Part shown: positions 20,605 through 35,930 of the stretch, piece after piece
Position numbering within the stretch: position 1 is the first letter of the stretch
Layout: each line of letters begins with the position of its first letter
Sequence record: PQ416618.1
Reading direction: 5' to 3' (one strand)
DNA length: 64,000 nucleotides
DNA from: Escherichia phage vB_VIPECOMC06
Program-made: the position numbers and the translations under genes
Notes under the pieces: model-generated
What the model was told of the DNA's origin: nothing
What the model saw: only the letters and a program-made list of their open reading frames with translations
Databases searched by the model: none

Positions 20605-21179
20605 TATGCAATCTCCATCTCACGAATCAAATCTGTGATAAACGAGTTTATATCTTCTTTTGCAACAATTTTTATTTTACGAAGTTTTTCATTATCTAAT
20701 ACTGCCGCTTCATAAGTATCTACTGCAGCTAAAGGTCCTTTATATTGCGGATACTTACGAGCTTCATCACCCTTATCGTACCACACTAAAGGCTCGTCCG
20801 GATATGAAACCAAATTGTAAAATTTCTCATGATTTTCATTAATATGATAAAGAACTTGGTCGCCGCCAGCATTAGCATATTTCTGAATAGAAGCTTGATA
20901 CGCTGCTTCCTGAGATGTAATCCAACCATAATACGGATCATAGTTGTCATTACACATCAAAAGGACCCAGTATAATTGAGGGTTGCCATAAATTATGTTT
21001 GCCAGTTCTTCAGGACGCGGAGAGCCTTTAATATAATAAGAACGTAATCTATAATTGGCAGCAACACGCTTAAAGTACTCTTTATAGTTACGAAATATGT
21101 CTGTCATAGGAATAGTAGGTGCGTTCTTATTAACTGTTTTAGCACTATATCCTATTGGGTCGAAGAATGTAAATAACAA
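20604..21179 (-). CDS. 53: Baseplate wedge protein gp53
   Basis: 191 aa (T4 gp53 196 aa); adjacent to gene 5. Confidence 0.8.
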   Translation of the reverse strand: MLFTFFDPIGYSAKTVNKNAPTIPMTDIFRNYKEYFKRVAANYRLRSYYIKGSPRPEELANIIYGNPQLYWVLLMCNDNYDPYYGWITSQEAAYQASIQKYANAGGDQVLYHINENHEKFYNLVSYPDEPLVWYDKGDEARKYPQYKGPLAAVDTYEAAVLDNEKLRKIKIVAKEDINSFITDLIREMEIA

Positions 21180-21207
21180 GATAGTCTCCTTCCAATATGA
21201 AATTGGT

Positions 21208-21234
21208 ATAAATAATAATACTATTTATAAGGAG
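21208..21234. promoter_or_regulatory. Divergent T4-type late promoters (TATAAATA on both strands) in the 53/4 intergenic region
   Basis: ggTATAAATAat on the plus strand upstream of gene 4; actatttataagg on the plus strand (= TATAAATA on minus) upstream of gene 53. Confidence 0.6.
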
Positions 21235-21240
21235 GACAAC

Positions 21241-21690
21241 ATGGCCTACTCTGGTAAATGGGTCCCGAAAAATTTAAAAAAATACCGTGGAGACCATACC
21301 AAAATAACGTATCGTTCAAACTGGGAAAAATTCTTTTTCGAATGGTTAGATAAAAATCCAGAAATTATTGCATGGGGTAGTGAAACAGCAGTAATTCCAT
21401 ATTTTTGTAATGCCGAAGGTAAGAAACGTCGATACTATATGGACATATGGATGAAAGATGCATCAGGTCAAGAGTTCTTTGTAGAAATAAAACCAAAGAA
21501 AGAAACTCAACCACCTATTAAGCCTGCAAATCTTACTACTGCGGCAAAGAAGCGTTATATGAATGAAATATATACCTGGTCTGTGAACTGTGACAAATGG
21601 AAAGCTGCCTCAGCTGTTGCTGAAAAGAGAAATATAAAATTCCGAGTTCTAACCGAAGATGGTCTTAGAAAACTCGGATACAAGGGGTAA
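21241..21690 (+). CDS. 4: Head completion protein gp4
   Basis: 149 aa from [48 protein letters not shown] (T4 gp4 ~150 aa); AGGAG SD upstream. Confidence 0.85.
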
Positions 21691-21692
21691 TT

Positions 21693-22514
21693 ATGAGCAT
21701 ATTCCAAATTATATCTGAAGGCGTACAAGCCCCTAAGATTGCTCAGTCTGTGAATGAAAGAAAATGGATTGAGATAGGATTAGAATACAAGAAAGCTAAA
21801 GAGAAAGGAATTACTGCAAAAGCATTTGCAGAATCAAAAGGAATAAAATACTCGTCATTTACATCTGCAATGTCTAAATATGCATCATCTATTAAGACTG
21901 CACAGAAAATTGAAACGCTTGAATCTAAACCTAAAAATAAACTCAATAAGCAAGAACGTCAACTTCTGATGATAAACTCGTTTCGCAGTTCAATACGAGA
22001 AAAGATTAGAAATGAAGGCGCAGCAGTAAACAACAAATCATCTAAGTGGTTTGTTGAAACAATTAAGAAAAGTGTAAAAGGTCATAAAGTAGTCAAGCCT
22101 ACGCCAGGCAAAATTTATACTTACGTGTATGATGCTAAACATAAAGATACTCTGCCGTATTGGGACCGATATCCTTTGATTATTTATTTAGGATTAGGTA
22201 AACATAATTTGATGTATGGGTTAAACTTGCACTATATCCCACCTAAAGCACGACAACAGTTTCTTGAAGAATTGCTGAAGCAATATGCTAGCACAACTAC
22301 TATTACTAATAACACAAAGTTGAAGATAGACTGGAGCAAGGTGAAAGGATTTCAAGGTGCTGACAAAATGATTAAAGCATACCTGCCAGGCCACATTAGA
22401 GGAACAATAACAGAAATAGCTCCTAAAGACTGGGCTAACATAATCATGTTACCTACTCAGCAGTTTATGTCAAAAGGAAAACGTTTCTCTGCGAATACTG
22501 TTTGGAAATCTTAA
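21693..22514 (+). CDS. 2: DNA end protector protein gp2
   Basis: 273 aa (T4 gp2 274 aa); basic protein; synteny 4-2-3. Confidence 0.85.
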
Positions 22515-22616
22515 TTCTATTCTCTTCCGTTATTCTGATATTCTGTTGAACCGGATTAATGGAAGAGACCTAAAACCATTATACTGCATTTTTATTAAAG
22601 CGTTTTTGAGGTGCTT

Positions 22617-23201
22617 ATGACTCGTCCAGCGAGACAGATTTTTAACCAAACAAATATAACAAACTTTGTTGTGGATATCCCGGATAGTACACGAACTTCA
22701 GGTTTTGTGCTCAATGCCCAAACGGCTCCATTGCCAGGTGTGAGAATTCCTGTTGTTGAAACTGTGACAGGCACAATGGGGCTAGGACGTGCAATGCGTG
22801 CAGGCACCACATTTGAATACGACCCTTTTGTTGTACGATTTATAGTTGATGAAGACATGACGTCCTGGATGAACATGTATAAATGGATGCTCAGCACTAA
22901 TAACTATATAACCGGACATAATACGGCCCACTCTGATGGTCCTGAGTTTGTTACTTTGCACATTTTAAACAACAATAAGACCGAAGTAGTTTTGACGGCA
23001 AATTTCTATAAACCATGGATTTCTGATTTGAGTGAAATTGAATTTAGTTACACTGAAGACTCTGACCCTGCCGTTACGTGCGTAGCAACTATTCACTACG
23101 CGTATATGACGATAGAAAAGGATGGTGAAGTCATTGTATCTCAACAACCACGTCAAGCGGTCGAATCTAAATCCATTTCTAGACACCCTTCCTTGCGTTA
23201 A
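22617..23201 (+). CDS. 3: Tail completion / tail tube terminator protein gp3
   Basis: ORF between genes 2 and 1; start chosen at the first ATG (MTRPARQ) with GAGGTG SD; 194 aa versus ~176 aa in T4, so the start is uncertain. Confidence 0.7.
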   Translation: MTRPARQIFNQTNITNFVVDIPDSTRTSGFVLNAQTAPLPGVRIPVVETVTGTMGLGRAMRAGTTFEYDPFVVRFIVDEDMTSWMNMYKWMLSTNNYITGHNTAHSDGPEFVTLHILNNNKTEVVLTANFYKPWISDLSEIEFSYTEDSDPAVTCVATIHYAYMTIEKDGEVIVSQQPRQAVESKSISRHPSLR

Positions 23202-23254
23202 TCGCTTCTAGCTCCGTATGTTATAATCACTCATAAATTATATGAGGAAAACCT

Positions 23255-23989
23255 ATGGAGCTAATCTTTTTAAGTGGCATCAAACGTAGTGGTAAAGACA
23301 CTACTGCTGATTACATCAATTCAAACTTTAAATCCGTAAAATACCAATTGGCATATCCGATTAAAGACGCTCTAGCAATAGCCTGGGGACGTAGACATGC
23401 TGAAAATCCTGATGTATTCACAGAGTTGAAATACGAATACTTTGAAGGCATTGGATACGACCGTGAAACACCATTAAATCTCAATAAGTTAGATGTTATT
23501 GAATTATTGGAAGAAGCGCTAATTTATTTGCAAAGTCAATATTTACCAATTAATAATGTTAAAGTATTATCATCGTTAGAAGGTGGATATTCGTATCTAG
23601 ATATTAAACCATATGAAGCCCTGCGTGAAGCTATAAATAATATCAACGACACATGGTCAATCCGCCGTCTTATGCAAGCCCTCGGTACGGATGTTGTCGT
23701 TAATTTATTTGACCGTATGTATTGGGTTAAACTTTTTGCATTAAACTATATGGATTATATTGGAAGTGATTTCGATTACTATGTTGTAACCGATACACGT
23801 CAAGTCCATGAAATGGAAACCGCTAGAGCGATGGGTGCTACAGTTATTCATGTGGTTCGCTCTGGTACGGAATCCACTGATAAACATATTACAGAAGCTG
23901 GGTTGCCTATTGAAGAAGGCGATTTAGTTATTACAAACGACGGCTCTTTAGAAGAGCTTTATTCTAAAATTGAAACAATCTTAAGGTAA
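23255..23989 (+). CDS. 1: Deoxynucleoside monophosphate kinase gp1
   Basis: 244 aa; MELIFLSGIKRSGKDTTADYI P-loop and ...AMGATVIHVVR...DLVITNDGSLEEL match T4 gp1 closely. Confidence 0.93.
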   Translation: MELIFLSGIKRSGKDTTADYINSNFKSVKYQLAYPIKDALAIAWGRRHAENPDVFTELKYEYFEGIGYDRETPLNLNKLDVIELLEEALIYLQSQYLPINNVKVLSSLEGGYSYLDIKPYEALREAINNINDTWSIRRLMQALGTDVVVNLFDRMYWVKLFALNYMDYIGSDFDYYVVTDTRQVHEMETARAMGATVIHVVRSGTESTDKHITEAGLPIEEGDLVITNDGSLEELYSKIETILR

Positions 23990-23993
23990 TAAA

Positions 23994-24679
<686 letters not shown>

Positions 24680-24691
24680 TTTCACAAAGTT

Positions 24692-24720
24692 ATTTACACG
24701 GGGTTTTAGTAGTGATACTA
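24692..24720 (+). promoter_or_regulatory. Early promoter/stem-loop cassette (aTTTAC -35, tagtgatactattaccctatc palindrome over -10)
   Basis: Sequence seen directly; same architecture recurs about 20 times in the window. Confidence 0.55.
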
Positions 24721-24757
24721 TTACCCTATCAAAACAAATGTGAAATTAGAGAATAAA

Positions 24758-25030
24758 ATGAAAACATTTAAAGAATTTATCAATGAAGCTGCTTTTAACG
24801 AAAAAGTAAAAATTAGCAAAGCTGTCAAGGCTTTGATTGATGACATCAATTACCTATATGATATTGATTTAACTGACTATGTAACAGTTGGTAACAAACG
24901 TAACTTTTTCGTGTTTGACATCTCTGAACTTGACCAGAATCAAATTAACAACATTGAGCGTTTTGCTAATGATAAGAGTCTTCGTCATGAGTCAGCGGGT
25001 TATAAAAAATACGCAATTTATTTAAAATGA
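24758..25030 (+). CDS. Internal-protein-like injected protein with capsid targeting sequence (IPI-position)
   Basis: Starts MKTFKEFINEA, the T4 internal-protein capsid-targeting-sequence signature (MKTYQEFIAE); located 3' of 57B where T4 has ipI. Confidence 0.7.
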   Translation: MKTFKEFINEAAFNEKVKISKAVKALIDDINYLYDIDLTDYVTVGNKRNFFVFDISELDQNQINNIERFANDKSLRHESAGYKKYAIYLK

Positions 25031-25060
25031 GTTTACTTTTAAATAGGGTTGTGGTACTAT
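25031..25060 (+). promoter_or_regulatory. Early promoter cassette (GTTTAC -35, 18-nt spacer, TACTAT -10)
   Basis: gtttacttttaaatagggttgtggtactat upstream of the 25091 ORF. Confidence 0.55.
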
Positions 25061-25090
25061 TATCTCATCAAAATTAATTAGGAAAATAAA

Positions 25091-25399
25091 ATGAAAACAT
25101 TTAAAGAATTTATCTGTGAAGCAGCTGCACCAAAGACATTCGTTATTCATACTCAAGCGGGTCTTGATGATGAGTATGCGGAAGCAATTCTGAAGTCACT
25201 TGCTAAGAACGGCGTTGAAGTAATTGCTTCGGACTTTAAGAAAGGGGCTCCCGAGATGTTTATTTCTATAACTAAAGGATCTAAAGCTAAGATTAAATCA
25301 TCATTCGGAGTTGCTCGTACCGATCAACTTGACAATCATAACTTTAAACAAACTGGCGTTAAACGGCAGAATACGATTGCATCACGCGGAATAAAATAG
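25091..25399 (+). CDS. Internal-protein-like injected protein with capsid targeting sequence
   Basis: Starts MKTFKEFICEAA; 102 aa; paralogous N-terminus to the 24758 ORF. Confidence 0.7.
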   Translation: MKTFKEFICEAAAPKTFVIHTQAGLDDEYAEAILKSLAKNGVEVIASDFKKGAPEMFISITKGSKAKIKSSFGVARTDQLDNHNFKQTGVKRQNTIASRGIK

Positions 25400-25410
25400 T
25401 TTATAAAACC

Positions 25411-25448
25411 GTTTACTTTTAGATAGGGTAGTGATACTATTACCCTAT
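25411..25448 (+). promoter_or_regulatory. Early promoter/stem-loop cassette
   Basis: gtttac -35, palindrome atagggtagtgatactattaccctat over -10, then caactactgaggagaataaaATG. Confidence 0.55.
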
Positions 25449-25468
25449 CAACTACTGAGGAGAATAAA

Positions 25469-25654
25469 ATGAAACGCGCTGAACTGATTCGTAATGTTGC
25501 TGTAGTAATTGCTTCAATGGCTTTTAGTTTTTCGATGTTTGTAGGATTCATTTGTGGACTACTGACAACAACAGAAAATTCTATCTCATTGGTAGTAGCA
25601 TTTCTAATCGGCTTAATCGCTATCGTTATGGATAAAATTGCAAAAGGTGAGTAA
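25469..25654 (+). CDS. Small hydrophobic (membrane) protein
   Basis: 61 aa, one long hydrophobic stretch; GAGGAG SD. Confidence 0.5.
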   Translation: MKRAELIRNVAVVIASMAFSFSMFVGFICGLLTTTENSISLVVAFLIGLIAIVMDKIAKGE

Positions 25655-25655
25655 A

Positions 25656-26018
25656 ATGAAATATCAAGTATATGCGGATTTTGAATCAAATCCTTCTAAA
25701 GACCCTGATTGTCGTTTGATACGCAGACCATTTGATTCAGCAGCTCAAGCCTGGGCTTGGATTAAAACTTGTACTCCTTCTTACACTTTCTTTGAAGTGG
25801 TAGATGATAACGGCATTTTGCATCCAGAACCTACAAAAACTATTAATTTCCTTCTGTTTGCTGGTTACGACTGTTATCCTCTTGGCGGTATTGACGATCT
25901 TGTTGCTACAGGAAAAACTGTTGAAGCTCTTCGTGAAATCTACAAAAATGCTGAAGAAAATTTTGACTGGTACCAGATTGTCAGTGCACATACTTTTGAA
26001 GTGGTGGAACACTCATGA
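25656..26018 (+). CDS. Hypothetical protein
   Basis: 120 aa from MKYQVYADF with AAAGGTGAG SD. Confidence 0.5.
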   Translation: MKYQVYADFESNPSKDPDCRLIRRPFDSAAQAWAWIKTCTPSYTFFEVVDDNGILHPEPTKTINFLLFAGYDCYPLGGIDDLVATGKTVEALREIYKNAEENFDWYQIVSAHTFEVVEHS

Positions 26019-26305
26019 TTCTTTATGCTAAAGTAAAATCTGTCGAGAACGGATATGAAAGCGATCAACGTGCAGCTAAAGCACTAGTCGATGACTATGG
26101 TATTTTGACTATTTTTGAAGTTGAAAAGGTTTACATCGACCGTTCATCTTCACAGGTTAAATTACTCTGTGAAGATGATAAATTTAACACAGTTAACTTT
26201 GATTTCTTTATTGAAACAGAAAAAGGCCCTCTTGAATATGATATTTTCAAGAATCCTTTGAAATTACGTTGCATTGAATATAATTACATTAATATGGTAC
26301 GGTGA
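26015..26305 (+). CDS. Hypothetical protein
   Basis: 96 aa; ATGA start/stop overlap with the upstream ORF. Confidence 0.5.
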   Translation: MILYAKVKSVENGYESDQRAAKALVDDYGILTIFEVEKVYIDRSSSQVKLLCEDDKFNTVNFDFFIETEKGPLEYDIFKNPLKLRCIEYNYINMVR

Positions 26306-26309
26306 GTAA

Positions 26310-26825
26310 ATGAATATTTGTTTAGGCAGTACAATTCCTAAAGGTTACGTAATTGATGTCACTACTTGGGAAAATGACGGTGACAACTATAAAACCAAAA
26401 CATTATTTGGTGTAGAAGAGCATGAGCTCCAACAGTTTAAATATCTCTTGAAGAAATTTAAGAGCCGTCATTCTAGCACCAAAGCCGAACGTTATTGCGG
26501 TAATACACCATTCAGTGATTGCTCGCTTTTAATCTATGAATACTTGGTTGAAGGACTGTTCTCAGACCAGCTTTATCCAGAATTCATTAAAAAGGTCTTT
26601 GATATTGAAGTCGACCTCGGTAATAAATCTGAAGAAGACGAATCACGTGTATTTGACCTGTTCCGTGAGAATGGATATTTGGTATCAGAAGGTCTCACTG
26701 ATATTCTTGGTCATGCTTCTGAATATTATGATTATGATTTCTTGCGTGTAGTTGAACGTGTCGAATTTGCTTATATTGAAGAAGAAATCGTTTTGCCAAC
26801 CGTTAAAATGATTGATTTGCTTTAA
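26310..26825 (+). CDS. Hypothetical protein
   Basis: 171 aa ORF with GGTGAG SD. Confidence 0.5.
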   Translation: MNICLGSTIPKGYVIDVTTWENDGDNYKTKTLFGVEEHELQQFKYLLKKFKSRHSSTKAERYCGNTPFSDCSLLIYEYLVEGLFSDQLYPEFIKKVFDIEVDLGNKSEEDESRVFDLFRENGYLVSEGLTDILGHASEYYDYDFLRVVERVEFAYIEEEIVLPTVKMIDLL

Positions 26826-26904
26826 GAATTATGTGTTATTATTAATTCATACCCTCTATTACCAAAGGTGCTCTAAAGTGCCTTTCATAATAGAAAGTTA
26901 TTAA

Positions 26905-26976
26905 GGCCCTGTAGCTCAATGGGAGAGCTGTCAGCTCATAACTGATAGGTAGCTGGATCGAAACCAGCCAGGGCCA
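26905..26976 (+). tRNA. tRNA with CAU anticodon (Met or lysidine-modified Ile)
   Basis: Cloverleaf readable by eye: acceptor GGCCCTG/CAGGGCC, D-arm GCTC-AATGGGA-GAGC, anticodon stem GTCAG/CTGAT with loop CTCATAA, T-arm GCTGG-ATCGAAA-CCAGC, discriminator A; no encoded CCA. Confidence 0.8.
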
Positions 26977-27017
26977 TATTTTGGGAACATAAATACTCTT
27001 AGAAATAGGAGATATTT

Positions 27018-27686
27018 ATGTTCCATTACACTTATAAAATAACAAATAAAATTAATAATAAAATCTATATAGGCGCTCATTCTACCGAAAATTTAGATGA
27101 TGGATATATGGGTTCTGGTAAATTATTAAAAAGAGCCCAAGACAAGTATGGTATAGAAAATTTTAATAAAGAAATTTTAGAATTCTTTGACACTAAAGAG
27201 CAGATGTTTGAAGCCGAGAAAAATATCGTAAACGAAGAATTTTTGAATCGTTCTGACGTATATAATTTAAAACTTGGTGGCGAAGGTGGTTGGGACCATT
27301 TAAATACTTACGAATTTAATTATAAAAAGAAAGAAGCCTCTATTAAAGGAGCCAAAGCTTTTAAAGAGAGATTTGATTCTGATGAAGTGCTTCAAGAAAA
27401 ATATCGTAAAATGGGTTCAGAGAAATTAAAGCATCTGTGGACTTTACCTGAATACAGAGAAAAATTCTCTAGCACTAAGTCGTTTTTAAATAAAAATCAT
27501 ACTTCCGAAACTATTGCTAAAATGAAAGATACCCACGCCAGGAACAAACACCAACAAGGCGAGAAAAATTCCCAGTTTGGTACTATGTGGATTCATTCAT
27601 TAGAAGAAAAGAAATCTAAGAAAATTAAGAAAACCGATCCTATTCCGGAAGGTTGGATTAAAGGCTATAAACTAAAATTTAAGTGA
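27018..27686 (+). mobile_element. GIY-YIG homing endonuclease (SegB-like) immediately 3' of the tRNA
   Basis: 222 aa; N-terminal YTYKITNKINNKIYIGAHS GIY-YIG motif; C-terminal NUMOD-like basic repeats; T4 segB (~221 aa) also lies in the tRNA cluster. Confidence 0.75.
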
Positions 27687-27693
27687 GGAAAAT

Positions 27694-28038
27694 ATGAAAG
27701 GCAATATTTATCTGGTAGTTCATGATTTAACGTTTTATTTTAACGAATATGATACAGTTATTTCTCATCGATTGATTAATTCGCTGTATCAGCACGCCGA
27801 TTACATTTATGTCCAAAATGAATTTGGACATTGGAAGTTCATTAAAAATCGTTCTGGGTTAACTAGTTTTGAATACTTTGACCGTAAAGACCTTTTAAAC
27901 GAAATCCCATTGCAACATCGGTTCCAGAAACGCGAATCATTATATTATTGCCGTCATATACCAAATGCCGAATGTGTTTATGAAGCGATTAATCTATGGC
28001 GTCGGCGTCGAGAGCAAATTAATGATATGCCAAAATAA
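27694..28038 (+). CDS. Hypothetical protein
   Basis: 114 aa ORF with GAGGAAAA SD. Confidence 0.45.
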   Translation: MKGNIYLVVHDLTFYFNEYDTVISHRLINSLYQHADYIYVQNEFGHWKFIKNRSGLTSFEYFDRKDLLNEIPLQHRFQKRESLYYCRHIPNAECVYEAINLWRRRREQINDMPK

Positions 28039-28040
28039 GA

Positions 28041-28337
28041 AACCGGGTCGCTACCGGTAAGTCGTCGGACTGATGTTCCCTGCGTAAGGACTGGTCTTAA
28101 TAAATCTTTATGATTTGTTAATATCCCCTTACATCACAGCAGAAACGGCGCACAGAATTATCGATTCGAGGAAATATCTTTGCCGTAAGCCGAGTAGCGT
28201 TTTTGACGGAACGTTCGGATATGGTCGAGATATGGCCTTTTAAAAATATTGAGTAGCGTCAACTGCTTAATAACCGGGTTCGAATCCCGGCGTTTCGTAC
28301 AAACACTTGCCTTGCAGGTGGAACCCCGACAAGGTAT
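28041..28337 (+). ncRNA. ORF-free candidate structured/stable RNA region containing a tRNA-like T-arm
   Basis: About 300 bp with no ORF of 60 aa or more; ccgggTTCGAATcccgg at 28274-28290 is a canonical tRNA T-stem-loop but I could not pair a full acceptor stem; T4 encodes stable RNAs C and D next to its tRNAs. Confidence 0.3.
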
Positions 28338-28366
28338 AGCCCCTTCCGAAAGGTTGGGGCTTTTTG
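28338..28366 (+). terminator. Rho-independent terminator
   Basis: agcccc-ttccgaaaggtt-ggggct hairpin followed by TTTTT; a near-identical copy is at 43427-43455. Confidence 0.7.
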
Positions 28367-28498
28367 GTATCTAGGCCTTTCAGGGCCTCTCTAGGCATCA
28401 TTTAGTTTATACCCTTTATAATATATTATCCTACCTTTTAATTTCCTCTCCCTGCCCTAGAATTCCATAAAACTTTTTTTAAAAATTTTCACAAAACT

Positions 28499-28528
28499 GT
28501 TTACATCCCTGTTCTTCTATGGTACTAT
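28499..28528 (+). promoter_or_regulatory. Early promoter cassette (GTTTAC ... TACTAT)
   Basis: ctgtttacatccctgttcttctatggtactat then caactactg...ggagaataaaATG. Confidence 0.5.
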
Positions 28529-28570
28529 ATCAATATCAACTACTGATACAGAAACAACTTGGAGAATAAA

Positions 28571-28834
28571 ATGGATAATTACGGTGAACTGTTCAACTTC
28601 TTTATGAAATGCGTTCCAGAAGATTTCGGACGTACAGTGAATGATATTAAAGTTATTGGACCTGAACACCCGGTGTATGAAACCTATGCAGTAATGGGTA
28701 ATGAAGATGGACAGTGGTATACAATTAAAGTTGTGATTAATATGTTCTCGGCTGAAGGCTACGCCAAATCGTCTACCAAAGTTTACCATGATAACGATTT
28801 TGATGCGGAAGATTATTTCAATAATATGAAATAA
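28571..28834 (+). CDS. Hypothetical protein
   Basis: 87 aa from MDNYGEL with GGAG SD. Confidence 0.45.
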   Translation: MDNYGELFNFFMKCVPEDFGRTVNDIKVIGPEHPVYETYAVMGNEDGQWYTIKVVINMFSAEGYAKSSTKVYHDNDFDAEDYFNNMK

Positions 28835-28864
28835 TTGTTTACATGGGCTCATGATTAAGATATT

Positions 28865-29197
28865 ATGAGCCCTATTAATGAGAAGAATGTTATGAGTCTT
28901 TATACTGAACTGAATAAAAAATCTGAAGAATCTGCTGAAACTATTTTTAAAAACGTGCAAAAGCGTATTTTAGAAAAGATGTATAACACTGCAGCTAAAG
29001 GTGAAAAATCTTGCCGGTTTCCGATGAGGTGTTCTTCTGATTTATGCGCAAATACTATTGAATGGCTGGAAAGCGAAGGTCTTACGGTAGAGAAAAATCC
29101 AACGACTTCTATTGACAGTGAATCATATATTAGTATTTCTTGGGATAAACCACGTATTAATGAAGGACACTACAAGTTGTTAAGTTGGAAAAATTAA
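28865..29197 (+). CDS. Hypothetical protein
   Basis: 110 aa ORF. Confidence 0.4.
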   Translation: MSPINEKNVMSLYTELNKKSEESAETIFKNVQKRILEKMYNTAAKGEKSCRFPMRCSSDLCANTIEWLESEGLTVEKNPTTSIDSESYISISWDKPRINEGHYKLLSWKN

Positions 29198-29266
29198 AAA
29201 TAAATGATGTACAAACGCCAAGGACGGTGTTACTATAGACTTATCAACTACAGAGGAGTAAACAAA

Positions 29267-29431
29267 ATGACTACTTTAATTATTTGGTTCGATGAAAATG
29301 AAGAAACATACTGTGTGAATATTGGTGAAAGTCCAATGCCTGAATTTGAATCCTCAGATAAAAACTCTGTTGTATCTTGGGCTGAAGGTTATAAAGCAGC
29401 TAAAGGTGACGTTGAAATAATTTACATCTAA
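29267..29431 (+). CDS. Hypothetical small protein
   Basis: 54 aa from MTTLIIWF with GAGGAG SD; ORF-track extension upstream lacks an SD. Confidence 0.35.
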   Translation: MTTLIIWFDENEETYCVNIGESPMPEFESSDKNSVVSWAEGYKAAKGDVEIIYI

Positions 29432-29478
29432 GTAAGTTTATGTTATAGTAATCACATCAAATCAAGAGGAGAAACAAA

Positions 29479-29706
29479 ATGGCTACAGTTAGTATTGATG
29501 TCGTTGATTATGAATACACCGAAGAAGTTATTCGCAACCGTCACCCTGAAGTTCGTATCGATTCGGTCCAAGATTCCAAGTTCTGGACAACTGAGCTTAA
29601 TCTGAGTGGTCCTTATGAAGCTGTTAAGAAGTTCATGGTTGAAGAATACTGTGAAGGCATGCACCCAGAAGACGCCGAGTTTTATGTCAATTTGATTAAA
29701 AAATAA
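29479..29706 (+). CDS. Hypothetical acidic protein
   Basis: 75 aa; AGAGGAG SD. Confidence 0.45.
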   Translation: MATVSIDVVDYEYTEEVIRNRHPEVRIDSVQDSKFWTTELNLSGPYEAVKKFMVEEYCEGMHPEDAEFYVNLIKK

Positions 29707-29741
29707 TTTACAAACTCTTGAGAGCAGAGTATAATGCTCTC
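29706..29741 (+). promoter_or_regulatory. Early promoter/stem-loop cassette; near-identical copy at 59314-59348
   Basis: tttacaaactcttgagagcagagTATAATgctctc; palindrome gagagca/tgctctc flanks the -10. Confidence 0.55.
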
Positions 29742-29776
29742 ATTGGATATTAAACCACCAATTGAAAGGTAATAAT

Positions 29777-30370
29777 ATGAACACACTGAAGAAACTTGTT
29801 GAATTCATCCGCACTAAACTGGGTACTGCTATGGCTAAAAATCTGACTGTCGAAGAACAGTATAACGCAGCTGCAGATAAGTTGATTACCCAAATCAAAG
29901 AACTAAAAACGGCTTCTGTTAAATCTATTAATGAAGAAAAACGTATTCGTGAACTTGTTATTGAAAAGAATAAGCAAGCCGCTTCTAAGGAACGTGAAAT
30001 TCGTAAGCTCTTGGCTGAAGGACAAGATGTTACCATGCATGCTAAGCTTGGTCTTCTGTATCGTCGAACTGCCGAACAACTTAATACAAAAGCCGACGGG
30101 TACGCTGCTATGCGAATTGAAATTGCTCGTAAGGTGGTTGAACTTGATGATGCTCGTCAGAACCTGGCAATCAAACTCGAATACATTCGTGAAACTCGAG
30201 CAGCCAATGCCCTTGGTATCTCTACGGCTGATGATGTAATTGAAATCGCTGCACTGACTAAGGTTGATATCGAAGACACTCTGACTCGTGTTGAAACGTT
30301 CAATGGCACTCCAACTGGTGTCGAAACAACTTCTGCTGATGTACAAGAATATATTAACTCTTTGAAATAA
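29777..30370 (+). CDS. Coiled-coil protein, possibly PspA/IM30-like
   Basis: 197 aa, long heptad-like helical sequence (…[28 protein letters not shown]…[20 protein letters not shown]); resemblance to PspA architecture is by eye only. Confidence 0.4.
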
Positions 30371-30378
30371 AATAATAC

Positions 30379-30400
30379 GGAGGACTCCGGTCCTCCTTTT
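30379..30400 (+). terminator. Rho-independent terminator
   Basis: ggaggac-tccg-gtcctcc hairpin followed by TTTT. Confidence 0.65.
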
Positions 30401-30419
30401 GGATAATAAAGGAGTTAAC

Positions 30420-31016
30420 ATGCGAAACCAAAATAATGATATTGACTCAATGTTCGAAGAGTTCCGAAATAAGGTAAATCCACCTACGTCTTTAGTTGAT
30501 TCATTACGATATGTTGCAACTGGACGTAAATGGTACTGGTCGTCTTCTTATGAGACAACTGAATATGCAAATAACCGAAAATCTTTATTAGCCCCAGGTA
30601 TTATGATTCATGATATCGGAGCTATTGCTAAACTAGTTGCAGACCATGATATTAGATTCACTGATTTCGTTGCTCCTACGTGGTCTGTTTGTTGTTTAAA
30701 CACTGAATGGGACTATATCAGTGAACGCTCTGAAGATTATTATGGTTTTAGAGATAAGCTCTTAAGGTCTAACATGTTTTATATCGATACTGAAGTTCTA
30801 GTCGATAATAAAAAATATTACTTTACGTTAATCGTCGATTCTGAAACTATGTATGAAGGCAAGCCTTTGCTTAAAAGAGTTGATGCTTTAAGTGCTATTG
30901 ATGCGCTTTATGAAACCATGGTTGTTAGTCCTAATTTCACTAACAATTTAATCCTTGAGCAATTTATTATGGAATGTAGAGAATATGTCAAAGCCAACCC
31001 TGTACATGCCAAGTAA
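30420..31016 (+). CDS. Hypothetical protein ending in the FIMECR junction motif
   Basis: 198 aa from MRNQNNDID with AAAGGAG SD; C-terminus ...EQFIMECREYVKANPVHAK. Confidence 0.45.
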   Translation: MRNQNNDIDSMFEEFRNKVNPPTSLVDSLRYVATGRKWYWSSSYETTEYANNRKSLLAPGIMIHDIGAIAKLVADHDIRFTDFVAPTWSVCCLNTEWDYISERSEDYYGFRDKLLRSNMFYIDTEVLVDNKKYYFTLIVDSETMYEGKPLLKRVDALSAIDALYETMVVSPNFTNNLILEQFIMECREYVKANPVHAK

Positions 31017-31380
31017 GCCCTGGGCGTATGAATACAAACGTAAATTAATCCCAAATGAAGTACTATTTGGCCCTATTTTAGCTTTAGCATTTTTAATCTT
31101 TATGATTATAGGAGCTATTTTAGATTCCAATAAAGTTATATCATCTGATGCAGTGTTTTTACTTATTATAGCCGGGTCGTTTATTGTACCATTTTTATTA
31201 ATGCCTATTAACTGGGTGGGATATTGGTACCAAGGACGTCATCACAGAGCCCGATTAAGAGAATGGAAAGTTCAGTGCGCAAAAGCCCAAGCTCAGTATG
31301 ATGAAGCTGTTAAAAAGTATGAATATGAAGAAGCTATGGAATTCGTTAAGGAAATAAGATGCAAAAGCCTCAACTCTTAA
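30985..31380 (+). CDS. Small membrane protein (FVKEIRC-tail family)
   Basis: 131 aa from MSKPTLYMP; two hydrophobic segments; C-terminus ...MEFVKEIRCKSLNS. Confidence 0.5.
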   Translation: MSKPTLYMPSKPWAYEYKRKLIPNEVLFGPILALAFLIFMIIGAILDSNKVISSDAVFLLIIAGSFIVPFLLMPINWVGYWYQGRHHRARLREWKVQCAKAQAQYDEAVKKYEYEEAMEFVKEIRCKSLNS

Positions 31381-31718
31381 CCGTATGGCCTTCTCTTGGC
31401 GAGAACATTCTAATTTTTATTATGAGTATTGGCATGGGATTTGCCTTTGGATTAGTTGGATTTCTTATTGACGGCGTTGTGTTAGGATTTATAGGGAACA
31501 CTGGTGGATTCACAGACCAATGGCAGGACTTACGGTATACCCAAGCCTTTGCATCCATCGCATCCTTTTGTACTGTAGTCTATTTTTACTACGATTTTAT
31601 AAACCATAACAAGAAAAATAAAAAGGTTTACGCTTCTCAAATGATTAGTTATAATGAACTCCTAGCTAGACGTGAAAATGAAACAATAGAAAACTTTATT
31701 AAGGAATGTAGAAAATGA
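31359..31718 (+). CDS. Small membrane protein (FIKECR-tail family)
   Basis: 119 aa; hydrophobic segments; C-terminus ...ENFIKECRK; AAGGAA SD. Confidence 0.5.
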   Translation: MQKPQLLTVWPSLGENILIFIMSIGMGFAFGLVGFLIDGVVLGFIGNTGGFTDQWQDLRYTQAFASIASFCTVVYFYYDFINHNKKNKKVYASQMISYNELLARRENETIENFIKECRK

Positions 31719-32020
31719 GTAAGATTATTGAAATTAAAGTACCAGAGTTTAATGATGCCAAATCCGCTTCAGATGCAATTTATAAACTTCTGAATCAAGC
31801 TGAACGTATCGAAGAAGAAGCAACAAAGATCGCAGACCAATATGCTGTATCATTTTCTGTAGGTGATTACGGTAGCGGTCGTACTTATTATCCTAAGGGT
31901 GAAATTGTATCCCAGTGGATGAAAGATGAAATTGAAAATAATGGTGGTGATGTTAAACGTGAAGGTAATGGTTACGTTATTACTGAAGGTGCTTGGGTTT
32001 CGTCTTCTGCGATGTGCTAA
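31715..32020 (+). CDS. Hypothetical protein, member of a tandem paralog triplet (C-terminal W-V-S-S-S..C)
   Basis: 101 aa; C-terminus EGAWVSSSAMC; the next two ORFs share this tail. Confidence 0.5.
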   Translation: MSKIIEIKVPEFNDAKSASDAIYKLLNQAERIEEEATKIADQYAVSFSVGDYGSGRTYYPKGEIVSQWMKDEIENNGGDVKREGNGYVITEGAWVSSSAMC

Positions 32021-32029
32021 GGAATCATT

Positions 32030-32302
32030 ATGTCTAAAGAACAAACCGAACTGGCCGAAGCCGTAGAAAAAATCTATGCAGCTATTGAGGCTGCCAAAGA
32101 AATTGCTGATAAACAAAACACAACATTCGACTTGTATCCAGCTTATGGTATGGGTGGAACCTATCATTCACCTGGACAACTTAAAGCCGATCTTGAACGT
32201 TGTACAAAAAACGGCTATGCTGAATGGGCTGACGTTTACCAATACGACTACAACCTGAGCCTCGAAACCGGTGGTTGGATTGCATCTTCTCACACTTGCT
32301 AA
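32030..32302 (+). CDS. Hypothetical protein, paralog triplet member
   Basis: 90 aa; C-terminus GGWIASSHTC. Confidence 0.5.
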   Translation: MSKEQTELAEAVEKIYAAIEAAKEIADKQNTTFDLYPAYGMGGTYHSPGQLKADLERCTKNGYAEWADVYQYDYNLSLETGGWIASSHTC

Positions 32303-32311
32303 GGAAATCAT

Positions 32312-32509
32312 ATGTCTCGTGAATTAGATTGTGCTGTACGTACGGCAGTAGCTGCTCTGGAAAACCTGTTCCAAATTGCAACAGAAGAACGCGAAGAAGT
32401 TACATTATGGATTGAAGATAACGCAGGTCTGAATCTCCAGAATGCAATCTCGGTATCAAATAATAGTATTACTGTTCAAGGCTGGGTATCATCTAGTTAT
32501 TCTTGCTAA
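32312..32509 (+). CDS. Hypothetical protein, paralog triplet member
   Basis: 65 aa; C-terminus QGWVSSSYSC. Confidence 0.5.
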   Translation: MSRELDCAVRTAVAALENLFQIATEEREEVTLWIEDNAGLNLQNAISVSNNSITVQGWVSSSYSC

Positions 32510-32513
32510 AACA

Positions 32514-32543
32514 GTTTACAACAAGATAGGGCTATGTTATAGT
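32514..32543 (+). promoter_or_regulatory. Early promoter/stem-loop cassette
   Basis: gtttacaacaagatagggctatgttatagtagtcctatc (palindrome atagg.../...cctat over -10). Confidence 0.5.
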
Positions 32544-32571
32544 AGTCCTATCAAATTAAATGGAGTCCACA

Positions 32572-32811
32572 ATGATTTATTACGAAAGTATCGGAACCAA
32601 AGTGGTTGGTAAAACCATTACTCGTGAAAAGTTTGCAAAGATATTCGATATGCGTTATAAAAAATCTGAACACAAAGGCATCAGATTCGAAGATGCACAC
32701 TGTACAATTTGCCCTTATAATGAAGACATAAATGGTACAATCGTTCCATTGGTAGAGGCTTCACATGACGACCTCTGGGATGAATATAATATCGCATGTC
32801 GCGAAATTTAA
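32572..32811 (+). CDS. Hypothetical Cys/His-containing small protein
   Basis: 79 aa from MIYYES with GGAG SD. Confidence 0.4.
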   Translation: MIYYESIGTKVVGKTITREKFAKIFDMRYKKSEHKGIRFEDAHCTICPYNEDINGTIVPLVEASHDDLWDEYNIACREI

Positions 32812-32839
32812 GTTAATGAATTAATCCGAGGAAATTATT

Positions 32840-33796
32840 ATGATGTTAGTTATTGGTTCTCGTGCACTTCACTATCATGGACTTATTGATTCTAACGCTA
32901 TCAAAAATAGTGACTGGGACTTTATTGCGGACCAAGGTTCTTGGAATACATTCAAAAATCAAATGATGGGTGTATATGTTCACCAAGATAACCCTGATGT
33001 CCAAGTTTTCAAATGCTTCCATAACGGACGCGAAACTCATTTTGAAGCATATATTGTTCCGGCAATCACTAATGTCCGTGAATTAGTCGGTGAACTCACT
33101 CCTGAAGATTTCACGTCTTCTTACGACCTTTTAAAATACGCCAAGAAAAATTTAACTAAAGACCGTTTGAACGGGTTTTACTGGGCAACTCCTGGGATGT
33201 GTCTTGCAATTAAGATGTCTCATCGTTTCAAGAAAAATAATCCATTCTTTTTAAAGACTATGAACCATATTCAGTATCTTCGTGGTAAAGGTGTTACACT
33301 GAACGATGAACTTACTGAAATTATGCTGAAACGCCAGAAAGAAACCTTGAACTATGCTCACCCAGTTCTTGACACTTCTAAAAGTGCGTTCTTTAAAGAT
33401 GACATCTATACATATGACCATGATACTATTCATGAAGCCATTGCACTAACAGACCGTCCAGCATATACATTTTATATGAAAGACGGTTCTGAAGTCATGA
33501 CCTCACGCGAGAAGTTTGAATCATTACCAGAAATGGTCAAATTGGCCGGTGTATACGAAGAATCATGTGTACTAGCATTAGAACGTTCTCAGATTCCTAA
33601 TGACTTTAAAATTAACCCTGAATCCAGTTTCATGATGGCATTGGAAAAAGTCTGTACAAGCATCACCTCCGGTTGGTTCCGTGAGTATGCCTGGGAAAAC
33701 TACAGCAAAGTAGTAAGTATGTACCAAAGCTTAGGACATGATGATTACGTCAAACGTTTCAAACAAAATTTCCATATGGTAAAACCTTTCAAATAA
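32840..33796 (+). CDS. Hypothetical 318-aa protein, possibly nucleotidyltransferase-fold
   Basis: N-terminus LVIGSRALHYHGLIDSNAIKNSDWDFI loosely fits a pol-beta NTase G-S...D-x-D signature, but the spacing is atypical; GAGGA SD. Confidence 0.35.
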   Translation: MMLVIGSRALHYHGLIDSNAIKNSDWDFIADQGSWNTFKNQMMGVYVHQDNPDVQVFKCFHNGRETHFEAYIVPAITNVRELVGELTPEDFTSSYDLLKYAKKNLTKDRLNGFYWATPGMCLAIKMSHRFKKNNPFFLKTMNHIQYLRGKGVTLNDELTEIMLKRQKETLNYAHPVLDTSKSAFFKDDIYTYDHDTIHEAIALTDRPAYTFYMKDGSEVMTSREKFESLPEMVKLAGVYEESCVLALERSQIPNDFKINPESSFMMALEKVCTSITSGWFREYAWENYSKVVSMYQSLGHDDYVKRFKQNFHMVKPFK

Positions 33797-33808
33797 CTTC
33801 ACAAAACT

Positions 33809-33838
33809 GTTTACAACATGATAGGACTATGTTATAGT
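33809..33838 (+). promoter_or_regulatory. Early promoter/stem-loop cassette
   Basis: gtttacaacatgataggactatgttatagtagtcctat. Confidence 0.5.
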
Positions 33839-33866
33839 AGTCCTATTAAAACATGAGGAGAATATT

Positions 33867-34172
33867 ATGAAATTAGGCGAAACCAACCGAATTGGTCTTT
33901 TAACAATATTTGCATCACCTTTTTACGCAGCCCTTTCTGTTGCAGTATTACAAAAGGCTTACGATATGGATGGTGTTCCTGGTTTTGTATTCTTATCGCC
34001 GTTTTTGCTATTCGTTGGAGCATTGTTATTATATGCCACGACTAGTTTCGACCATAACGTCTGGGTCAATTATAAATGTAAATTGTCTGAAGAAGAACAC
34101 GCGGAAGCTCGTAAAAAAGCTATTGAATCTACTAATCTAGAAAATTTCATTAAAGAATGTCGAGGAAAATAA
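33867..34172 (+). CDS. Small membrane protein (FIKECR-tail family)
   Basis: 101 aa; two hydrophobic segments; C-terminus ...LENFIKECRGK. Confidence 0.5.
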   Translation: MKLGETNRIGLLTIFASPFYAALSVAVLQKAYDMDGVPGFVFLSPFLLFVGALLLYATTSFDHNVWVNYKCKLSEEEHAEARKKAIESTNLENFIKECRGK

Positions 34173-34243
34173 TATGAATAGTTGATGGCAATGAAGGTAT
34201 TTCATACTATTCAGTAGATTGGACATCCTGTCCATCCTACTTA

Positions 34244-35097: not shown

Positions 35098-35103
35098 GTA
35101 ATA

Positions 35104-35131
35104 AATACCTCCTATAAACGTGGGAGGTATT
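35104..35131 (+). promoter_or_regulatory. Gene e translational-control hairpin with embedded late promoter
   Basis: tacctcc-TATAAAcg-tgggaggta: stem ACCTCC/GGAGGT sequesters the SD (GGAGG); TATAAA late-promoter-like element sits in the loop, as described for T4 gene e. Confidence 0.6.
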
Positions 35132-35898: not shown

Positions 35899-35930
35899 TG
35901 TTTACTTCCTCCAAGGACTTTGATACTATA
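35899..35930 (+). promoter_or_regulatory. Early promoter cassette
   Basis: gtttacttcctccaaggactttgatactat then caactacttggaggaaattATG. Confidence 0.5.

Follow-up and report, generated by a model that had tools for sequence, protein, structure and literature searches.

Which codon does the lone tRNA(CAU) of this phage read, and did the homing endonuclease gene that lies next to it shape the small tRNA set? We addressed these questions in a window of 64 kb (the whole stretch of DNA that was analyzed) out of a genome of ~168 kb. Over the 20 kb searched (positions 20000-40000), the window is 95-97% identical to phages phi25-307, RB69, and p000v (97.3% to phi25-307 and 95.7% to RB69), and by this similarity the source is an RB69-like T-even phage of the genus Mosigvirus.

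The tRNA gene and its surroundings

ARAGORN detected one tRNA in the whole 64-kb window, at 26905-26976 on the plus strand, with anticodon CAT and the label Met; Rfam at the gathering threshold recovered the same sole tRNA (62.4 bits, E = 3.8e-11). A permissive Rfam scan (E ≤ 10) of positions 26000-29000 revealed neither a second tRNA or pseudo-tRNA nor a remnant of tRNA-Arg, only chance-level matches (snoRNA, isrK, RT-6, 5.8S, and Ysr197), all far under the gathering scores. Alignment of T4 tRNA-Arg to this region recovered solely a 14-nt T-arm-like stretch of rnaC. An earlier reading made from the letters alone (hereafter, the sequence-only reading) had described a single tRNA with an elongator-type acceptor stem, and both points were borne out. 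Its baseline, the eight tRNAs of T4, was the wrong comparison: the whole-genome count in Mosigvirus, RB69 included, is two tRNAs, both at this locus (PMC1524935; PMC12898486), so that only tRNA-Arg(UCU) has been lost. Because these relatives carry both of their tRNAs here, we infer a single tRNA for the genome, 64 kb of which were seen. The gene does not encode a CCA end, and its T loop, AUCGAAA (A54, A60), is unusual; the anticodon loop is CUCAUAA (C34-A35-U36, A37, A38), the same as in the host tRNA.

A leader hairpin (26855-26893, plus strand), identified by folding and conservation, ends 11 nt 5' of the tRNA start. It folds at -15.7 kcal/mol (z = -5.65; none of 200 shuffles folded as well), and its sequence is kept in RB69, F2, and p000v and partly upstream of the RB33 tRNA-Gln. 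The hairpin probably serves in processing of the tRNA precursor; an RNase III site lies upstream of T4 tRNA-Gln, to which it may be related.

Downstream of the tRNA lies segB (27018-27686, plus strand), which encodes a free-standing GIY-YIG homing endonuclease of 222 aa. Its product contains the Pfam GIY-YIG domain (PF01541, E = 1.3e-6, 29 bits against a curated cutoff of 22.6), matches PHROG 314 "homing endonuclease" (E = 1e-49), and retains the catalytic motif Y17-I18-G19 (within NKIYIGAH); the Y17A/G19A variant of T6 SegB is catalytically dead (PMC13096335). The protein is 78% identical to RB33 SegB over 221 aa, gapless and at full length, ~75% identical to T4 SegB, and 100% identical to that of p000v. 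Between the tRNA and the ATG, which starts 42 bp past the final tRNA base, is a 41-nt spacer that is identical to that of RB33 and 97.6% identical to that of T4. On these sequence comparisons, the ORF is a true SegB orthologue, confirming the proposed SegB-like gene 42 bp downstream. The adjacency of tRNA and segB is not peculiar to this genome but is the conserved T4 arrangement (tRNA-Ile, 41 nt, segB).

Another hairpin (26984-27024, plus strand; 18 base pairs with a perfect 12-nt inverted repeat; -21.4 kcal/mol, z = -7.14) buries the start signals of segB, its Shine-Dalgarno sequence AGGAG (27007-27011) as well as its AUG (27018). This predicted structure should restrain translation of segB, which would be throttled over its own ribosome-binding site and AUG; such RBS-sequestering hairpins have been described for T4 homing endonucleases (PMC2330249).

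The next gene, ORF114 (27694-28038, plus strand; 114 aa), is a Mosigvirus backbone gene, homologous to RB69 ORF150c, that is predicted to share a transcription unit with the tRNA and segB. It belongs to PHROG 3355 (unknown function); Pfam gave no match for it or for the neighboring 171-aa ORF, which PHROGs likewise places in a family of unknown function. Homologues of both T4 stable RNAs follow on the plus strand: rnaD (T4 species 2; 28035-28153), 88.9% identical to T4 rnaD, aligned to the annotated RB33 rnaD, and with a fold z of -2.9, and rnaC (T4 species 1; 28161-28299), 98.6% identical to its T4 counterpart and with a fold z of -4.07. Rfam has no family for either RNA, and the assignments were made by homology and by position downstream of the tRNA cluster. 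The two RNAs, which the sequence-only reading had implied to be missing, are thus both retained (28035-28299); they are unannotated in most records of such loci. A GC-rich hairpin followed by a T run (28338-28366, plus strand; -18.5 kcal/mol, z = -3.3), conserved in p000v and F2, is likely the intrinsic terminator of the tRNA-segB-ORF114-rnaD-rnaC unit, a structural assignment that is absent from a simple terminator scan. The sigma-70 promoter/terminator scan of 26.2-28.7 kb showed no enrichment over shuffles (7 found vs 9.4 expected) and yielded no usable promoter call. The locus probably forms one transcription unit, from the leader hairpin through tRNA(CAU), segB, ORF114, rnaD, and rnaC to the terminator.

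Identity and role of the tRNA(CAU)

When the tRNA was searched with blastn in 5,426 E. coli genomes, only 10 genes matched, all annotated as tRNA-Ile; two of these loci were opened, one of which is a prophage late region, beside the antiterminator Q. Because this search gave no match, not even an 11-mer seed, to ileX or metT, identity elements were compared by structural position. In the resulting table, the window tRNA has C4-G69, C5-G68, U12-A23, G27·U43, C29-G41, and A73, along with C11-G24, A30-U40, A44, and the anticodon stem GUCAG/CUGAU. C4-G69, C5-G68, and C29-G41 are common to E. coli ileX, T4 tRNA-Ile, the RB69 and RB33 tRNAs, and the E. coli prophage tRNA-Ile, and the 27:43 pair is non-Watson-Crick in all of these as well as in the window tRNA. 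E. coli metT has U4-A69, A5-U68, C27-G43, U29-A41, C30-G40, and G44.

These positions bear on recognition by host enzymes. C4-G69 and C5-G68, both present here, are positive determinants for E. coli TilS (PMC2500205; PMC1635315), and U4-A69 and A5-U68, both absent, are TilS antideterminants as well as MetRS acceptor-stem elements (PMC2500205; PMC9976931). The tRNA-Met acetyltransferase TmcA needs C27-G43, C30-G40, and G44 and has G27·U43 as an antideterminant (PMC2500205); the window tRNA contains none of the three required elements and does contain the antideterminant. For the synthetases, with identity sets taken from PMC9976931, the IleRS elements A73, C4-G69, U12-A23, and C29-G41 are all found (4 of 4). 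Further elements on the E. coli IleRS list, the D-loop positions G16, U20, and U21, are missing here, and E. coli ileX does not have them either. The elongator tRNA-Met set (U4-A69, A5-U68, C27-G43, C30-G40, and G44) is complete in metT and entirely lacking in the window tRNA. A CAU anticodon within a CUCAUAA loop is common to tRNA-Met and is necessary for tRNA-Ile2 without being discriminating.

By its identity elements and its synteny with T4 tRNA-Ile, the window tRNA is strongly favored to be a lysidine-type tRNA-Ile2, an AUA reader. Nolan et al. (2006) assigned the CAU tRNAs of T4, RB69, and other phages to the lysidine-type Ile class and traced "Met" labels on such tRNAs to naming by anticodon only; lysidine and Ile charging are known for T4 tRNA-Ile from the literature and the T4 annotation (PMC1524935). 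The sequence-only reading had offered Met or lysidine-modified Ile and suggested an identity-element analysis, which found all published Ile2 discriminators and none of the elongator-Met or initiator ones. Its Ile/AUA half therefore stands, by these elements and T4 synteny, whereas leaving the choice open does not, the Ile assignment having been published since 2006. The main result is thus an annotation correction: the label "tRNA-Met" in dozens of phage records should become tRNA-Ile2 (AUA reader). Relatives show compensatory pair changes (VR7 has U7-A66 for G7-C66, and a Phapecoctavirus has G30-C40 for A30-U40), which indicate selection on tRNA structure.

That the gene encodes an ordinary elongator tRNA-Met reading AUG is highly unlikely. 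Such a tRNA would be compatible with the CAT anticodon and the ARAGORN label, with the tRNA-Met annotation in the majority of phage records, and with unmodified tRNA-Ile2 being a known MetRS substrate (PMC9976931). However, that label is a product of anticodon-only naming (PMC1524935), the MetRS acceptor elements are missing and double as TilS antideterminants, and the gene has G27·U43 in place of the pairs and G44 that TmcA uses (PMC2500205). Moreover, T4 has its tRNA-Ile at the corresponding position, the genes matched in E. coli carry the annotation tRNA-Ile, and ATG is no rare codon in need of supplementation. The probability of an initiator tRNA-fMet is practically negligible, although it shares the CAU anticodon and the AUCGAAA T loop is similar to the A54/A60 signature of eukaryotic initiator tRNAs. 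Initiators are recognized by a C1xA72 mismatch, A11-U24, and three G-C pairs at 29-31:39-41 (PMC1635315); here, 1:72 is a G-C pair, the D stem has C11-G24 and U12-A23 instead of A11-U24 and G12-C23, and the anticodon stem GUCAG/CUGAU lacks the three G-C pairs, so that this candidate is already refuted by sequence. Points that count against the Ile2 assignment are the missing D-loop elements, the atypical A54/A60 T loop, which may affect TilS, IleRS, or EF-Tu, and the possibility that TilS is outpaced during infection, when tRNA with unmodified C34 would be charged with Met.

AUA accounts for 12.0 per 1000 codons and 16% of Ile codons in 97 window ORFs, compared with 2.7 per 1000 and 4.6% in 48 E. 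coli K-12 genes. Among the AUA-rich genes of the window, ORF 21693-22514 reaches 36.6 AUA per 1000 codons. The codon is thus ~4.5 times commoner in the phage window than in the E. coli sample, in line with the suggestion that it is rare in the host and common here; for AGA, the excess of phage over host is ~6-fold. If the tRNA-Ile2 assignment is correct, host RNase P would cut the 5' end of the tRNA, and the 3' end would be trimmed by host enzymes, which would also add the CCA that the gene lacks. TilS would then recognize C4-G69 and C5-G68 and convert C34 to lysidine, and IleRS would charge the modified tRNA, which could supply AUA reading in a host whose own tRNA-Ile2 is scarce. It is improbable that the tRNA is kept mainly as a counter-defense asset rather than for codon supply, be it to replace a host tRNA that an anticodon nuclease has depleted or as a substrate for segmental amplification by SegB. 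In T6, SegB amplifies the adjacent tRNA-Tyr, allowing escape from Septu, and a statistical association links segB to tRNA genes (PMC13096335); the present allele is also spread over unrelated phage groups. Yet no tandem duplication or amplification was seen in the window, the anticodon loop is the same as that of the host and so carries no escape mutation, and AUA enrichment is a sufficient and simpler reason. We also know of no defense system that targets tRNA-Ile2.

Probable SegB homing and the loss of tRNA-Arg

The canonical order in RB69 and phi25-307 is tRNA(CAU), 6 nt, tRNA-Arg(UCU), and ORF114, whereas the window, p000v, and LF82-4 (3 of the 134 records containing ORF114) have tRNA(CAU), segB, and ORF114. 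segB thus occupies the exact slot of the missing tRNA-Arg, and all three segB-positive Mosigviruses lack this tRNA. At the right junction of the segB cassette (27678-27682, plus strand), a three-way alignment of the window, RB33, and RB69 revealed a TTTAA microhomology common to the T4-type segB end and the sequence just past the CCAA 3' end of the Mosigvirus tRNA-Arg gene. The junction lies ~1 nt past the predicted SegB cut site, and the deletion end-point is within 1-6 nt of the CCAA end. SegB has been reported to cut tRNA genes at their 3' ends, directly behind CCAR, and in T4 x T2L crosses, SegB homing removes recipient tRNA genes, tRNA-Arg included (PMC2330249). The arrival of segB next to tRNA-Ile probably explains why tRNA-Arg(UCU) is gone and apparently removed this second Mosigvirus tRNA.

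A likely course of events can be outlined from the enzymology and homing of SegB (PMC2330249; PMC13096335). SegB would cut the T-arm/3' end of tRNA genes in rival phage genomes without segB, and segB would be copied in through recombinational repair, along with flanking DNA. In this lineage, a T4-type segB cassette would have been joined directly after A73 of tRNA(CAU) and, at its other end, at the TTTAA microhomology right after the tRNA-Arg CCAA, deleting tRNA-Arg. The window SegB, a variant 75-78% identical to the studied enzymes, is predicted to cleave site-specifically at the T-arm/3' end of tRNA genes and to be preferentially inherited; indirect support comes from the presence of segB in some close relatives and its absence from others, from the junction beside a CCAR site, and from an identical 890-bp tract in diverged backgrounds. 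The 64 kb contain three perfect copies of the SegB core GGTTCRANTCC (at 908, 28277, and, on the minus strand, 45444); the second of these (GGTTCGAATCC, 28277-28287) lies within the tRNA-like T arm of rnaC. The T arm of the window tRNA, GGATCGAAACC, has two mismatches to this core; T4's own tRNA-Ile has two as well, and T-loop "immunity" to SegB is not treated as established.

The tRNA-segB block appears to have since moved among diverged Mosigvirus genomes. There are no mismatches between the window and p000v over 26812-27701, with the flanking ORFs 89% and 92% identical, nor between the window and LF82-4 over 26850-27747; the block is thus 100% identical to both over ~890 bp amid flanks diverged by 8-11%. 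The nearest backbone relative, phi25-307, bears another tRNA(CAU) allele with ~20 differences. Such an identical block within diverged flanks points to its recent transfer by homing. From the 890-bp tract it follows that the copies of the block share a recent ancestor; it does not follow that SegB cleavage drove the transfer. Repeats of the tRNA-segB segment, whether direct or from tandem amplification of the kind seen in T6 Septu escapers, were sought, and just short chance repeats came up.

Loss of tRNA-Arg independently of SegB, by random deletion in a segB-carrying lineage, with the shared block spread by ordinary homologous recombination, is the less likely course but has an appreciable probability. 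T-even genomes are highly mosaic, T4 retains tRNA-Arg adjacent to segB, VR7 has a lone tRNA(CAU) but no segB, and F2 keeps tRNA-Arg with another endonuclease-like ORF in the slot that segB occupies here. An unrelated event would, however, have to place the deletion end-point in the reported SegB cut region, 1-6 nt from the tRNA-Arg CCAA end (PMC2330249), replace tRNA-Arg exactly with segB, and leave every segB-positive Mosigvirus (n = 3) without this tRNA, and the T4 x T2L crosses demonstrate removal of recipient tRNA genes by SegB homing (PMC2330249). Deletion of tRNA-Arg by an unrelated event could have occurred before or after segB arrived.

With SegB homing as the preferred explanation, the locus illustrates neatly how, in nature, a homing endonuclease reshapes the tRNA complement of a phage, with both junctions readable, and the natural pattern (the junctions and the 890-bp tract in diverged genomes) agrees with the experimental T4 x T2L crosses. 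More tentatively, and with some doubt, the tRNA(CAU)-segB block might be a selfish cassette that erodes the Mosigvirus tRNA set, overwriting the resident tRNA(CAU) allele and deleting tRNA-Arg(UCU) at each homing event. If so, the tRNAs that a phage carries would be set by endonuclease drive and not by translational selection, despite the ~6-fold excess of AGA; as a corollary, the A54/A60 T loop and the lost encoded CCA(R) would make a poor SegB substrate, protecting the cassette from its own nuclease.

Comparison with known loci

The T4 locus (NC_000866, 70.9-72.0 kb) likewise contains tRNA(CAU), a 41-nt spacer, and segB, then rnaD and rnaC; the RefSeq annotation gives tRNA-Ile 41 nt 5' of segB followed by Arg, rnaD, and rnaC, an order shared by RB33. 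The T4 tRNA, like that of the window, is without an encoded CCA. In contrast to T4, the window lacks the six upstream tRNAs (Gln, Leu, Gly, Pro, Ser, and Thr) and tRNA-Arg, has the 114-aa ORF between segB and rnaD, and carries a different allele of the tRNA body (39 of 46 aligned 5' positions identical, 84.8%), with the A54/A60 T loop. RB69 and phi25-307 share the backbone of the window (ORF171, leader, tRNA(CAU), ORF114, rnaD, and rnaC) but have tRNA-Arg(UCU) 6 nt past tRNA(CAU), no segB, and a T4-type tRNA(CAU) allele with the normal UUCGAAU T loop. The architecture and junctions of p000v (NC_055781) and LF82-4 (PV660448) are the same as in the window, except that LF82-4 is without the ORF171 gene. 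Gaprivervirus VR7 carries the same tRNA allele (97%; VR7_gt001, the sole annotated tRNA in a 3-kb stretch) with no adjacent segB and a different ORF downstream. E. coli tRNA-Ile2 (ileX/ileY), the lysidine-modified AUA reader with the same CAU anticodon and CUCAUAA loop, shares with the window tRNA G1-C72 through C5-G68, G27·U43, C29-G41, A73, and the T stem GCUGG/CCAGC; it differs from the window tRNA in its normal T loop, its encoded CCA, and its D-loop and variable-loop sequences.

Taken as a whole, the account of a T4-type tRNA-Ile counterpart, SegB homing, a cassette that deleted tRNA-Arg, and later movement of the block is, in our judgment, quite likely correct. The locus exemplifies known biology neatly and without real surprises; all of its elements have already been described, and it opens no new question: tRNA-Ile(CAU) in T4-like phages, tRNA targeting by SegB, and the small tRNA sets of RB69-like phages are all published.

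tRNA content and identity of the CAU tRNA

ARAGORN detected a single tRNA in the whole 64-kb window, at 26905-26976 on the plus strand, with anticodon CAT and a sequence that folds into a cloverleaf. Rfam at gathering thresholds recovered the same lone tRNA (62.4 bits, E = 3.8e-11) and no other family in the window, and a permissive Rfam scan (E ≤ 10) of 26000-29000 produced no second tRNA-like match. The one convincing tRNA of the sequence-only reading is thus borne out by two programs that agree. The eight tRNAs of T4, with which that reading compared it, are the wrong yardstick: over 20 kb that include the locus, the window shares 95-97% identity with members of Mosigvirus (Tevenvirinae), among them Shigella phage phi25-307, RB69, and p000v. 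The published complement of RB69-like phages is one CAU and one Arg-UCU tRNA (Nolan et al. 2006, PMC1524935; GADS24, PMC12898486), and both are present in the RB69 and phi25-307 sequences. Given the Mosigvirus membership, the correct baseline is two tRNAs.

Three independent lines of sequence evidence, namely, position, identity elements, and database neighbors, point to lysidine-type tRNA-Ile2, the isoleucine option of the two previously left open for the CAU anticodon. The tRNA lies precisely where T4 has tRNA-Ile. In standard tRNA numbering, it contains G1-C72, C4-G69, C5-G68, U12-A23, G27·U43, C29-G41, A37, A38, and A73. The pairs C4-G69, C5-G68, and C29-G41 are common to E. coli ileX (the tRNA-Ile2 gene), T4 tRNA-Ile, the RB69, RB33, and Phapecoctavirus copies, and two E. 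coli tRNA-Ile(CAU) genes (one of which adjoins prophage late genes), and position 27:43 is non-Watson-Crick in all of these. The E. coli elongator tRNA-Met gene, metT, has U4-A69, A5-U68, C27-G43, U29-A41, and G44. The discriminators compared here are experimentally defined (PMC2500205, PMC9976931): TilS needs both C4-G69 and C5-G68, with U4-A69 and A5-U68 acting as antideterminants; for the tRNA-Met acetyltransferase TmcA, the determinants are C27-G43, C30-G40, and G44, and G27·U43 is an antideterminant (PMC2500205); and IleRS elements include A73, C4-G69, U12-A23, and C29-G41 (PMC9976931). In blastn searches of 5,426 complete E. coli genomes, the only matches were ten genes, annotated by PGAP as tRNA-Ile. 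The putative tRNA-Ile2 assignment agrees with that of Nolan et al. 2006, who found a CAU tRNA in every T4-like genome that has tRNAs, noted that tRNAscan calls it Met despite its IleRS/lysidine signatures, and listed RB69 as 'Arg UCU + Ile CAU*' (PMC1524935). Initiator identity was also considered and rejected, as C1xA72, A11-U24, and GGG:CCC (criteria from PMC1635315) are all missing from the window tRNA.

Compensatory changes in relatives, G7-C66 to U7-A66 in VR7 and A30-U40 to G30-C40 in the Phapecoctavirus Schickermooser, imply that the gene is under structural selection. The closest E. coli relative, 78% identical, is a tRNA-Ile(CAU) in a lambdoid prophage of E. coli M19 (L012, 1201-1510), where it and a tRNA-Gly gene immediately follow the gene for antiterminator Q.

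Codon usage was compared between 97 non-overlapping window ORFs (18,947 codons) and 48 annotated E. coli K-12 genes (14,474 codons). AUA, as had been supposed, is rare in the host (2.7 per 1000; 4.6% of Ile) and common in the phage (12.0 per 1000; 16% of Ile), an enrichment of about 4.5 times, consistent with the tRNA serving codon supply. For AGA, the enrichment is about 6.5 times (8.0 per 1000, or 18% of Arg, vs 1.2 per 1000, or 2.2% of Arg), although the AGA-reading tRNA is lost. The distribution of AUA is uneven: the long ORFs on the minus strand at 1-20.6 kb have 6-17 per 1000, and five plus-strand ORFs of 310-333 aa at 45539-51994 have 0-3 per 1000. In the ORF at 21693-22514, AUA reaches 36.6 per 1000 codons.

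Organization of the tRNA-segB-stable RNA locus

In T4 (RefSeq) and RB33, the gene order is Gln, Leu, Gly, Pro, Ser, Thr, Ile(CAU), 41 nt, segB, Arg, rnaD, rnaC. In the window, the tRNA is preceded by a strong, conserved leader hairpin (26855-26893; fold z -5.65), possibly a site of precursor processing, which ends 11 nt before the tRNA begins. Immediately upstream of this leader, the window shares with p000v, RB69, and F2 a 171-aa ORF (PHROG 2290, function unassigned) that is absent from LF82-4 (L008, 1771-1866, vs window 26310-26825). The tRNA is followed by a 41-nt spacer, identical in RB33 and 97.6% identical in T4, and by segB (27018-27686, plus strand, 222 aa), which begins 42 bp beyond the tRNA 3' end. 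The proposed SegB-like GIY-YIG gene was confirmed by a Pfam GIY-YIG match above the curated cutoff, a match to PHROG 314 ('homing endonuclease', E = 1e-49), and a full-length, gap-free alignment with RB33 SegB (78% identity). Its identity is about 75% with T4 SegB and 100% with the p000v protein, and it retains the Y17-I18-G19 motif, mutation of which kills T6 SegB (PMC13096335). An 18-bp hairpin (26984-27024; -21.4 kcal/mol, z -7.1), conserved with T4 and RB33, spans the spacer and the first segB codons and buries the Shine-Dalgarno sequence and AUG; translational restraint by hairpins of this kind has been discussed for T4 homing endonucleases (PMC2330249).

Downstream of segB are a 114-aa ORF of unassigned function (27694-28038; RB69 ORF150c homologue, PHROG 3355), rnaD (28035-28153), rnaC (28161-28299), and a predicted GC-rich hairpin with a T run (28338-28366). 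The two stable RNAs, previously cited as a contrast with T4, are therefore both kept, with 88.9% (rnaD) and 98.6% (rnaC) identity to their T4 counterparts. No Rfam family matched either RNA in the gathering-threshold scan of the window or the E ≤ 10 scan of 26000-29000, and this probably accounts for their rare annotation; both are unannotated in the fetched p000v, RB69, F2, phi25-307, and LF82-4 records. A tRNA-like T arm closes rnaC and contains a perfect SegB core motif (28277-28287).

Loss of tRNA-Arg and probable spread of the tRNA-segB block

The canonical Mosigvirus order is tRNA(CAU), 6 nt, tRNA-Arg, and the 114-aa ORF; in the window, segB takes the place of tRNA-Arg. The left junction reads ...CAGGGCCA|TATTTTGGG..., continuing as the T4/RB33 spacer, whereas the segB-less allele of phage F2 reads ...CAGGGCCA|CCAAAC..., so the cassette starts right after discriminator A73 and the encoded CCA is removed. 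On the right, segB of RB33 ends with AAATTTTAA, followed by tRNA-Arg; tRNA-Arg of RB69 ends with ...GACCAAC, followed by TTTAAGTGAGGAAAATATG; and the window reads AAATTTAAGTGAGGAAAATATG. This three-phage comparison places the join at a TTTAA microhomology (27678-27682), 1 nt past the CCAA of the missing tRNA-Arg, and explains why the window SegB has 222 rather than 221 residues. That CCAA is a CCAR site, the reported place of SegB cleavage. The recognition site of SegB spans about 27 bp and contains the T-arm motif GGTTCRANTCC, and cleavage falls near the 3' ends of tRNA genes, often directly after CCAR; in T4 x T2L crosses, its homing efficiency is nearly 100%, and about 1,250 bp of the recipient genome, with the genes for tRNA-Met, Tyr, Asn, and Arg, is excluded in the process (PMC2330249). 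This core motif was also obtained by SITE-seq, and a statistical association of segB with tRNA genes holds across phages (PMC13096335). In phage F2 (L002, 2827-3498), an unannotated 223-aa ORF between tRNA(CAU) and tRNA-Arg weakly matches a PHROG 'homing endonuclease' (E = 1.6e-5), which indicates a different endonuclease-like gene in the same inter-tRNA slot, with tRNA-Arg kept.

Among 134 phage records containing the region of the 114-aa ORF, the window-type junction occurs in three, two of p000v and one of LF82-4. The window and p000v show no mismatches over 26812-27701 (890 bp), with adjacent ORFs 89.1% and 92.2% identical; the window and LF82-4 show none over 26850-27747. Had the spacer and segB (710 bp) diverged as far as the flanks (~9.6%), these two alone would show roughly 70 differences, and none was seen (chance about 1e-31 by our arithmetic). 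The closest relative of the backbone, phi25-307, has the other, T4/RB69-type tRNA(CAU) allele, with about 20 differences, indicating that the tRNA allele and segB move together. These alignments are most simply read as a single founding event, in which segB would have been fused to the window-type tRNA allele with deletion of tRNA-Arg, followed by spread of the block among diverged Mosigviruses by homing or co-conversion. We infer SegB to be the cause of the spread and of the tRNA-Arg loss. The broader notion that endonuclease drive, not translational selection, trims the tRNA set appears rather doubtful.

Copies with 97-100% identity to the window allele occur in other Mosigviruses, in the Gaprivervirus VR7, in SP18, and in unrelated Phapecoctavirus myoviruses; in VR7, it is the only tRNA annotated within the stretch fetched. 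In Phapecoctaviruses, tRNA-Arg follows tRNA(CAU) after 2 nt (Schickermooser, L009, 1501-1652), and this RB69-like pairing in an unrelated myovirus suggests that the Ile(CAU)+Arg pair may move as a module. The T loop (T arm 26953-26969) is AUCGAAA rather than UUCRANU, with U54 and the pyrimidine at position 60 replaced by A54 and A60, a pattern that we take to resemble the eukaryotic initiator T-loop signature. This loop creates two mismatches to the SegB core motif. Immunity of the tRNA gene to SegB through the T loop is nevertheless an improbable idea because T4's own tRNA-Ile is likewise imperfect with respect to the motif.

Relationship to known systems

T4 tRNA-Ile(CAU), SegB and its tRNA-gene targets, rnaC and rnaD, the small RB69-like tRNA sets, and the lone CAU tRNA of VR7 are already known, and the exact architecture is present in GenBank in p000v and LF82-4, where the tRNA is labeled Met. 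To these, the present analysis adds a junction-level account of the loss of tRNA-Arg, evidence for recent movement of the tRNA-segB block, and the finding, contrary to the sequence-only reading, that the window has the stable RNAs.
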